Shown: one piece after another, positions 8,655 through 9,199 of the stretch
Numbering within the stretch: the stretch's first letter is position 1
Layout of the letters: each line of letters opens with the position of its first letter
From: a virus
Virus genome (UHGV): UHGV-0134101
DNA: 10,004 bases
Direction: 5' to 3' (one strand)
The notes under the pieces: model-generated
Told to the model about the DNA's origin: nothing
What the model saw: the letters and a program-made list of their open reading frames with translations, nothing else
Databases searched by the model: none
Made by a program: the position numbers and the translations under genes

Positions 8655-8718
8655 CAATCCATCGAAACGAAACATCGACAGCTGAGCGAAGTTAGCCAGC
8701 GGCGGACAGCAAGTCGCC

Positions 8719-8733
8719 TGCTTCTTTAACAAA
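8719..8733 (+). promoter_or_regulatory. boxA-like motif in the leader downstream of the pL-like promoter
   Basis: TGCTTCTTTAACAAA resembles the rrn/lambdoid boxA core (TGCTCTTTAACAA) with one inserted T. It lies about 60 nt downstream of the predicted start site. Confidence 0.25.
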
Positions 8734-8875
8734 TCAGACTGAGTGACAGGCAAGCCGTAGCTCTCCTGGCAAAAAGAAATGGCACCCGATGGGATCGAGG
8801 TAAGCACTGAGTCCGTATGCGTACGGTAGGTGTAGAGGACCACGCTGCGATGAGCTGATAAGTCACTCAATTTGA

Positions 8876-8897
8876 AGCGCTCCGATGATGGGGCGCT
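8876..8897 (+). other. Stable RNA hairpin in the ORF-free leader region
   Basis: AGCGCTCC-GATGAT-GGGGCGCT, an 8-bp stem with one G-U pair. It is immediately followed by a GAGGAG Shine-Dalgarno and a 3-codon mini-ORF ATG AAG AAC TAA (8923-8934). Confidence 0.35.
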
Positions 8898-9199
8898 GAT
8901 TCAACTTAGAGGAGTGATTCCAATGAAGAACTAAAGCGGACAGACCGCAGCCTAAAGGCAATGCAGCAGTAATGATGCCGCCCTGAGTCGCCGAATGGCG
9001 AGCCTGTGTAGTGATGGGTCAAGGTTCTTATATCAAAACAAGCTCCGGTAAAGCAGCGCGAACGCCAGACGCGCACCGGTTATGAGCGGCGATGAGCGAC
9101 AAGGTCTCAAGGGCATGTGCGCGGCCACTGCGAGAGTGTGGCGAAGTTTACCAGCAGCTCTTTGCGAGGGGCTGACGGTAAACAAAAAGAGGAGTGTGT

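Follow-up and report, generated by a model that had tools for sequence, protein, structure and literature searches.

Introduction

What does a lambdoid prophage make from its early-left promoter, pL, when no lambda-type N gene follows it? The question is raised by the virus genome UHGV-0134101, of which a stretch of 10,004 nucleotides (nt), here called the window, was analysed. The window contains a lambdoid prophage that has 99-100% identity to a prophage of Escherichia coli CX21 over most of its length. Between pL and the first substantial open reading frame (ORF) lie about 540 nt, 8655-9199, for which the initial annotation suggested a structured leader, an antitermination RNA, a small RNA or a decayed N-type gene. 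Sequence comparison indicates that this interval is an untranslated, modular 5′ leader of the pL (early-left) operon, and that it is a mosaic of four modules. One part of it, at 8909-9146, is an element of ~235 nt that consists of a Shine-Dalgarno sequence (SD), an ATG, two codons and a stop, followed by an RNA of eight helices. Judged from the distribution of its relatives, the element is a member of a large, widespread RNA family that is exchanged in one piece among Enterobacterales temperate phages and is apparently undescribed. Lambdoid leaders are textbook material, yet this conserved, mobile RNA is unnamed in Rfam 15 and carries no annotation from the Prokaryotic Genome Annotation Pipeline (PGAP) in E. 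coli.

A widespread family of structured RNA

The sequence 8920-9141 recurs in Hafnia phage yong1, mEp213, Stx2c phages, Klebsiella RothC/D, vB_EcoS-733R5 and a Providencia phage, mostly without annotation. A 30-nt degenerate pattern from the 3′ part of the element is found in at least 120 IMG/VR contigs and in 47 Enterobacterales species-representative genomes, the genera ranging from Escherichia and Citrobacter to Xenorhabdus, Proteus, Pectobacterium and Erwinia. An independent anchor in the 5′ half gave at least 120 IMG/VR matches, 63 of which are new loci with full downstream sequence; nearly all of these keep the 3′ motif with at most single substitutions, and its conservation is therefore no artefact of the search key. 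Taken together, the two anchors put the family in at least 180 contigs of IMG/VR. Among 5426 complete E. coli genomes the element is present in 128 (~2%), almost always with no PGAP feature annotated under the match. An nhmmer profile of the family matches the window over its full length (8922-9145, E 2e-65) and finds one copy per locus, in sense orientation, and none in HK639, phi80, BHUENT6 or the HK022 immunity region.

A covariance-model search, as had been proposed for the interval, identified no Rfam 15 family that fits it. There was no match in 8655-9199 at E ≤ 1 in a scan of the whole window and no family at E ≤ 10 on the region, and the region scanned alone returned only chance-level scores (11-15 bits, E 2-5). 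Literature searches by sequence string and by topic found no description of the element. The initial annotation was right to see structured RNA here, and missed that it belongs to a portable family which is also found after Q and at the junction of lysis and terminase genes.

Compensatory base changes, which had likewise been proposed as a check, are abundant in the element. They were counted directly, pair by pair, on a 44-pair model in 109 distinct sequences whose identity to the window is 49-80%. Under this model 91.6% of cells are paired, versus 32-38% when partners are slid. Double-sided changes number 365, compared with 110 in column shuffles (0/500 shuffles reach 365), and occur in 30 of the 44 pairs, and the covariation score is 0.276 versus 0.03-0.07 with slid partners and 0.12 in shuffles, again reached by none of 500. 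RNAalifold agrees with this result. Since G-U pairs are frequent and A-C pairs rare in the helices, the functional strand is the plus strand, in the sense of the operon. Compensatory changes beyond the controls are in this way combined with a strand-specific G-U signature, as in a conserved structured RNA. Some loops, such as CUCAAGGGCAUG, are near-invariant, and CUCAAGGGCAUG is kept even in copies found with the unrelated anchor.

One pairing was set aside. The minimum free energy fold of the single sequence pairs the mini-ORF codons with GGUUCUU, and this looks unconserved in the few aligned relatives that were read.

The signs of a protein-coding gene or pseudogene (an open frame, codon periodicity and indels in multiples of three) were not found in the element. 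Substitution variability by codon phase is 0.204/0.190/0.213, showing no 3-nt periodicity, and gap runs not divisible by three number 869+468 versus 73 that are divisible. The longest plus-strand ORFs of 8655-9199, 42 and 40 amino acids (aa), lie at its 3′ edge, and none longer than 42 codons overlaps the interval, much as the initial annotation had stated (none over about 40 codons where lambda encodes N); minus-strand ORFs reach 75, 63 and 56 aa. No relative has an intact gene in the interval, and the suggestion of a decayed N-type gene is on these grounds not supported. No ORF of lambda N type with an arginine-rich motif was found in 8655-10004; CX21 and EC09 carry the phi80 ‘N’-position gene further downstream.

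A putative ribosome pad of fixed geometry

The element opens with a start-stop frame that would serve as a ribosome pad. An ATG, 0-2 sense codons (mostly two) and a stop are present in 75 of 84 copies, and in 60 of these 75 an SD (GGAGG or GAGG) lies 6-9 nt upstream. The encoded peptides show no relationship to one another, examples being MKN, MKQ, MVH and a lone M before the stop. From the A of the ATG to the first base of helix P1 the distance is 13 nt in 77 of 112 copies and 12 nt in 23 of 112, whatever the length of the ORF. The conserved quantity is the geometry and not the peptide. Mini-ORF 1 with its SD, one of two mini-ORFs picked out in the initial annotation, is a conserved and defining feature of the family. 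The second, ATG CAG CAG TAA, is present in the sequence and is not a feature: it lies inside the strongly covarying helix P2, of which it is a by-product, and no more than 57 of 109 relatives have its ATG. The good SD claimed for it lies 2 nt from the ATG.

Frames of this kind, with an SD, an AUG, 0-2 codons and a stop, are known from the lambda bar minigenes and from bacterial start-stop mini-ORFs. The pad shares with them this architecture, its presence in a lambdoid early operon, and a peptide that is irrelevant where initiation alone can matter. It differs in that a set distance of 12-13 nt separates its AUG from a conserved structured RNA, in that the frame is part of a portable ~235-nt unit, and in that the sense codons before the stop are not rare ones.

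A YafO-family type II toxin gene (7846-8265, plus strand) is located upstream of pL, with a partner ORF 5′ of it (7271-7855, plus strand) and a strong terminator at 8264-8285. YafO is a ribosome-dependent mRNA interferase that cleaves shortly past start codons. A gene of this family near an RNA with a start-stop pad is curious, and any link between the two would be conjectural.

Genomic contexts of the element

Contexts were taken from GenBank and RefSeq annotations and from clustering of the upstream ORFs. Three homes recur, always in the sense of the operon: after cI and pL, after Q, and between the lysis genes and the terminase. The clusters of upstream ORFs comprise 24 distinct cI-like (S24-repressor) proteins, 18 Q proteins from three Pfam families, 7 endolysins and 4 Acb2/Tad1 proteins. 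In the first of these homes, some copies have a boxA on their 5′ side and an arginine-rich, N-like ORF directly 3′ of them, and there are phages in which the element coexists with Q or with a putative N.

The copies after Q are preceded by tR′ and followed by a second terminator, with holin or tRNA genes further downstream; a terminator stands within ~15 nt of P8. The hairpin that corresponds to P0 of the window is an intrinsic terminator in these copies. In five loci (L015, 2380-2470; L006, L033, L038, L062) an 11-base-pair (bp) terminator, AAGCCCCGCGG...CCGUGGGGCUU followed by UUGCGUUUCU, ends at the SD of the element. With one terminator at the SD and another 3′ of the element, these are late leaders in which two terminators bracket the RNA.

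At the lysis-terminase junction the element may stand directly 3′ of an Acb2/Tad1-family gene (L013, 2162-2725, in E. coli M505; also L039, L060, L070 and L091). This neighbour (Pfam PF24729, E 1e-17) is an anti-CBASS/Thoeris sponge, which puts the RNA in an anti-defence or accessory island.

Large structured noncoding RNAs associated with phages, such as ROOL and GOLLD, are known, and their function is unknown. The element resembles them in having a complex conserved fold at accessory positions of temperate phages, occasionally beside tRNA genes; a general association with tRNAs was rejected, a tRNA gene being found ≤400 nt downstream in only 4 of 178 loci. It differs from ROOL and GOLLD in being much smaller, in having no Rfam match to them, in its Enterobacterales hosts and in starting with a start-stop minicistron.

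The copies after Q also recall RNAs of the late leader between pR′ and tR′, such as lambda 6S RNA and StxS, and the small RNA morons AgvB and AsxR, since they too lie in the late leader and are bounded by intrinsic terminators. StxS is a short pR′-tR′ late-leader RNA of a lambdoid phage (PMC7547250), and AgvB and AsxR are small RNA morons downstream of pR′, an accessory site known for phage small RNAs (PMC4104026). The pR′-tR′ RNAs precede tR′, whereas the element follows it. The element is ~4x longer than these RNAs and the morons, is multi-helical and has a ribosome pad, and unlike the pR′ small RNAs it is also found in pL leaders and after lysis genes.

Organisation of the pL leader

The promoter described as pL-like in the initial annotation is a good one. 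It matches the consensus at 10/12 positions, is the sole sigma-70-like site within 8250-10004, and aligns with the annotated pL of phi80 and of HK639; the interval is therefore the start of the early-left transcript. The promoter scan of 8250-10004 found none directly before the structured element. The coordinates first assigned to the features all proved correct in the sequence, and those of the revised features are given in Table 1.

Table 1. Features of the pL leader and its surroundings, with positions in the window.
Feature	Position	Strand	Remarks
Replication and nin genes	leftmost part of window	-	
cI-type repressor	6378-7154		
Two inserted genes, one a YafO-family toxin	between cI and pL		3′ limit is the terminator 8264-8285
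Short gene	8294-8503	-	
pL promoter	8626-8654	+	TTGACT, 17-nt spacer, AATAAT; sits among repeated TAACCATTGGTTA-type operators and operator-like palindromes
Conserved 5′ leader	8657-8733	+	H1 8662-8678, H2 8681-8700, H3 8701-8718, then boxA
Hairpin H3	8701-8718	+	GGCGG-ACAGCAAG-UCGCC; abuts 5′ side of boxA, at the boxB position of rrn leaders
boxA-like site	8719-8732	+	TGCTTCTTTAACAA, then ATCAGAC as in rrn leaders
Variable spacer	8734-8875	+	includes small stem-loop 8813-8826
Hairpin P0	8876-8897	+	AGCGCUCC-GAUGAU-GGGGCGCU, 8 bp; 11 nt 5′ of SD
Ribosome pad, SD	8909-8914	+	GAGGAG
Ribosome pad, mini-ORF 1	8923-8934	+	ATG AAG AAC TAA
Structured RNA core	8936-9142	+	eight helices
P1	8936-8948	+	
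P1b	8950-8959	+	
P2	8963-8981	+	
P3 (long-range)	8982-8987 with 9106-9113	+	
P4	8988-9001	+	
P5	9002-9019	+	
P6	9045-9079	+	
P7	9089-9097	+	
P8	9124-9142	+	
Mini-ORF 2	8961-8972	+	not a feature; 5′ strand and loop of P2
Stem-loop SL-II	9146-9183	+	GUUUACC-AG-CAGC...GCUG-AC-GGUAAAC; second stem-loop of the HK639 putL-like RNA; 5′ untranslated hairpin of next ORF
First substantial ORF of operon	9200-9541	+	113 aa, HK639_45 homologue; SD AGAGGAG

Alignment of 27 distinct phage leaders showed that 8657-8733 (~75 nt) is almost invariant, with the operators 5′ of it and the sequence 3′ of it diverging freely in the same leaders. This segment is common to phi80, BHUENT6 and, up to 8704 only, HK639; a compensatory variant of H2 is found in one leader (L020). 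The boxA-like motif noted in the initial annotation lies at its end and is conserved in the related leaders. It has one inserted T relative to the rrn boxA TGCTCTTTAACAA, and its 10-mer TCTTTAACAA occurs once in the window versus 0.01 expected by chance. The site corresponds to the ‘nutL boxA’ annotated in the phi80 genome record, and of 120 distinct contexts of the structured element, 42 have a boxA-like site ≤450 nt upstream of it, near either -190 or -65.

In nascent RNA, boxA recruits NusB and NusE, and antitermination in rrn leaders involves boxB-boxA-boxC and a complex of NusB, NusE, NusA, NusG and SuhB. The site in the window is close to UGCUCUUUAACAA, promoter-proximal and part of the nascent RNA. 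As in rrn leaders, a conserved hairpin abuts its 5′ side, so that hairpin, boxA and AUCAGAC follow in the same order as in the rrnG leader with which it was aligned: GCCGC...GCGGC-AC-UGCUCUUUAACAA-UUU-AUCAGAC in rrnG, and in the window the hairpin followed directly by UGCUUCUUUAACAA and AUCAGAC. The rrn leader itself, located ~95 nt upstream of 16S, is 100% conserved in E. coli and was found in every one of the 5426 genomes, at a median of 7 sites in each. As in rrn and nut leaders, the boxA of the window lies ~60 nt past the pL start and has a long untranslated structured RNA downstream. It differs from the rrn site in its one extra U, and no boxC-like UGUGUGGG was seen in the leader of the window. 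It differs from lambdoid nut sites in that no pentaloop boxB of lambda or P22 type was found 3′ of boxA, and in that the ‘nutL core’ of phi80 is not in the window, where other sequence replaces it. Because the arrangement of hairpin, boxA and AUCAGAC is rrn-leader-like, Nus-factor antitermination of the nut or rrn type at this site is plausible.

The boundaries of the mosaic were set by pairwise comparisons with other phages. The segment 8656-8704 is common to HK639 and 8500-8732 to phi80; 8723-8897 matches other partners, vB_EcoM-606R2 and BHUENT6; the sequence from 8920 to 9141 or 9173 is common to many unrelated phages; and from 9147 on there is 97-98% identity to HK639 and BHUENT6. The window has ~440 nt where HK639 and BHUENT6 have only ~90 nt. 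The spacer 8734-8875, part of which is shared with vB_EcoM-606R2 and BHUENT6, exists in three or more mutually unrelated versions among related leaders, including the phi80 nutL-core version. The small stem-loop in the spacer does exist as first annotated, with a conservation limited to near-identical copies. The hairpin at 8876-8897 does have the 8 bp assigned to it, and diverged relatives form a hairpin of other sequence at the same place. The structured leader RNA proposed at the outset is in this sense borne out, the interval being structured and noncoding.

The 3′ hairpin and the put connection

Put antiterminator RNAs are known in phages HK022 and HK639 (King et al., 2011, via PMC9378689). 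The comparison made here is with the GenBank annotation of HK639, the HK022 record having no put annotation. RNAs of this type act in cis on RNA polymerase, with no further factor, by way of its beta′ zinc-binding domain. The HK639 record (NC_016158) annotates a ‘putL-like antiterminator RNA’ at the matching place, which folds into two stem-loops. The resemblance is one of position, in the pL leader of a phage without a lambda-type N beside pL, and of the second stem-loop: identity to HK639 is 97% from 9147 on, and the segment folds as SL-II. The first stem-loop (SL-I; L001, 2599-2633) has no counterpart, its place being taken by ~440 nt of other sequence, and nhmmer detects no resemblance between the HK639 leader and the large element. 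Two adjacent stem-loops just downstream of pL are therefore not what the window has. The SD of the 113-aa ORF is preceded by SL-II, at a distance of 14-16 nt, in HK639, BHUENT6, one phage from IMG/VR and one prophage of Pseudocitrobacter, and the sequence upstream of SL-II is not the same in any two of these four. Being always linked to this ORF and having a variable upstream partner, SL-II behaves as part of the 5′ untranslated region of the ORF. The put-like idea in the initial annotation thus holds as far as SL-II is kept, and fails in that SL-I is absent and SL-II travels with the downstream ORF. The 113-aa ORF matches no Pfam family.

A 23-codon ORF, MTNFIAHNSVTRRYLKRGELMAK, with the SD GGAGG, ends in ATGGCTAAATGA (L071, 10740-10815; also L139, the Pseudocitrobacter prophage). 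HK639 has the same end, ...ATGGCTAAACGA, between its putL-like stem-loops I and II, and part of the HK639 ‘putL-like’ feature may be derived from a small ORF.

Proposed function and alternatives

Sequence comparison suggests that the interval combines a boxA leader, a portable RNA cargo with a start-stop pad and an ORF-linked 3′ hairpin, an account to which we would give an even chance. The first ~75 nt of the leader would fold into three small hairpins and present boxA in rrn-like order. NusB and NusE (S10), with other Nus factors and possibly the phi80-type ‘N’-position protein of the relatives, would load at boxA, and the RNA polymerase so loaded would withstand Rho while it makes the ~540 untranslated nt that precede the ORF at 9200; it is because so much untranslated RNA precedes the first substantial ORF that we infer an antitermination role for boxA. 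The polymerase would then transcribe the self-contained ~235-nt element, with its pad 13 nt ahead of the eight-helix core. A ribosome initiating at the 5′ edge of the element would have P1 at the entrance to its mRNA channel and would in every case stop short of the fold. The element would be an RNA cargo made during lytic transcription, and its core would most likely bind a conserved partner (the ribosome, another protein or a small ligand) and not act as the antiterminator of the operon. We favour cargo because the element occupies classic accessory (‘moron’) sites and coexists with Q and N-like ORFs, and also because it is found as a single copy per locus, always in operon sense.

If boxA does act in this way, rrn-style and possibly N-independent Nus-factor antitermination would serve long untranslated RNAs in these phages. 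Binding of the element to the ribosome, to a host factor or to a signalling molecule would add an RNA-based accessory function to the ‘moron’ repertoire of temperate phages, and would allow the purpose of start-stop minicistrons to be studied in a well-defined setting. The isolated phages mEp213, yong1, RothC/D and vB_EcoS-733R5 carry the element, so the family is open to direct experiment.

Several points weigh against this account. The extra U in boxA relative to the consensus could weaken binding of NusB and NusE, and the phi80 ‘N’-position protein has no match to a Pfam N family, its sole PHROG match being phrog_25091, of unknown function. That the cargo acts through a partner is an argument from distribution, and every copy sits upstream of same-strand genes, which is compatible with a role in cis on downstream expression. 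The long-range helix P3 is almost invariant and therefore beyond the reach of the covariation test, and one variant (L202) favours a local hairpin CUCR...YGAG instead. The P0 region is, family-wide, only modestly more structured than shuffled sequence (-13.4 vs -11.0 kcal/mol), and a tight upstream hairpin was not accepted as a family-wide feature.

A more far-reaching proposal, for now tentative and on the doubtful side, is that the element represents a class of phage noncoding RNA that is new, with a start-stop pad for ribosome docking fused to the compact eight-helix core. While the phage grows lytically, such an RNA would serve in trans as a sponge or decoy for a translation-linked host factor or toxin, or for an immune signal. 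Together with a downstream module at 9617-9720, a look-alike of 16S helix 11, it would make the pL leader of these phages an rrn-style, boxA-driven RNA-mimic cassette, and it would be the RNA counterpart of the Acb2/Tad1 protein sponges that neighbour some copies.

The element could instead be a processive antiterminator RNA acting in cis, a larger analogue of the put RNAs of HK022 and HK639 or of Bacillus EAR that replaces N in this prophage by modifying the polymerase from which it emerges for read-through of later terminators. It is promoter-proximal and sense-oriented in long operons, it occupies the place of HK639 SL-I with P8 ending 3 nt upstream of SL-II, and the copies after Q are directly followed by an intrinsic terminator. 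An operon antiterminator would, however, be expected neither alongside Q proteins of three families and N-like genes nor mid-operon after lysis genes, where some copies lie, and the late-leader copies are located past tR′, a point that polymerase reaches only when modified by Q. Each locus has a single copy, in contrast to the pairing of putL and putR, and no similarity to the HK639 putL region (L001) is detectable by nhmmer. We therefore regard this explanation as unlikely.

Much the same can be said of a sensor that regulates in cis, as an aptamer of riboswitch type or as an attenuator that responds to translation. It would control the expression of downstream genes by pairing alternatively with what follows it, the terminator in late leaders or a CUUUGGGG-type stem in pL leaders. 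A multi-helix junction with highly conserved unpaired nucleotides would suit a sensor, as would a position that is always upstream of same-strand genes, the terminator so close to P8 in the after-Q copies, and a spacing at which a ribosome at the stop codon of the mini-ORF would unwind P1. What makes it improbable is that the 3′ neighbours differ wholly between contexts, that the downstream genes are unrelated among themselves, and that an obvious antiterminator/terminator alternative pairing was not seen; 0-2 sense codons also leave no room for sensing of a specific amino acid.

Ribosome-bound 5′ stabilisers are known, as in the ermC and cryIIIA STAB-SD type elements. A module for RNA stability, processing or insulation, in which a parked ribosome and a compact fold shield the long polycistronic transcript, or a product processed from it, from RNase E or from Rho in long untranslated gaps, would account for the strong SD with its start-stop frame, the hairpins on the flanks and the invariable location in long intergenic gaps of operons. 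Such a module would have no need of ~200 nt of helices conserved across the order or of near-invariant loops, and we give it little credence.

A decayed N-type gene or a real minus-strand protein is scarcely credible: PGAP annotates a 75-aa hypothetical protein in CX21 (8643-8870) and the record of Klebsiella phage RothC has minus-strand ORFs over its copy of the element, but the 75-aa ORF has no Pfam or PHROG match and is open in only 10 of 27 homologous leaders, nearly all of the E. coli matches listed have no annotation under the element, and base-pair covariation without codon periodicity explains the conservation.

Downstream ORFs and a 16S-like module

No complete E. coli genome matched the window as far as its 3′ end; the closest ones diverge from it at 9744 (CX21) and 9979 (EC09). 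An ORF from 9974 (MIRLNNE..., running off the window) takes the place of the phi80 ‘N’-position gene of these two genomes. A hairpin CCCGCAUCAGCGGG followed by UAAC is found twice (9722-9744 and 9950-9973), each time with ~20 nt between it and an ORF, the one at 9761 or the one at 9974, and the same hairpin precedes the phi80 ‘N’ gene and its CX21/EC09 homologue (L011, 2015-2066). It looks like a translational or processing signal shared by early-left ORFs.

Gene calls conflict around the first substantial ORF. HK639 calls the plus-strand ORF (9200-9541), and PGAP calls a minus-strand ‘ECs_2282 family putative zinc-binding protein’ (9281-9775). Family support is weak for both: phrog_29546 at E 2.5e-4 for the 113-aa ORF, and phrog_4852 at E 3e-8 with sub-threshold zinc-ribbon matches for the ECs_2282 ORF.

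In the module at 9617-9720 (plus strand), denoted M2, a stem GUUUUGGGCUGGC/GCCAGCACCAAAAC encloses a look-alike of 16S helix 11 and a further hairpin. The look-alike matches positions 237-283 of the Rfam SSU model with 32 bits and has 89% identity over 37 nt to E. coli 16S 246-282. Mimicry of rRNA by the structured element itself was rejected, no similarity to the full rrnG operon being found when M2, as positive control, matched 16S 246-282. M2 directly abuts the 3′ end of the element in five other phages, and could be a decoy for a protein that binds helix 11. One phage has an E. coli-type helix variant, and other copies have a similar CUUUGGGG...CCAAAG closing stem with different interiors.

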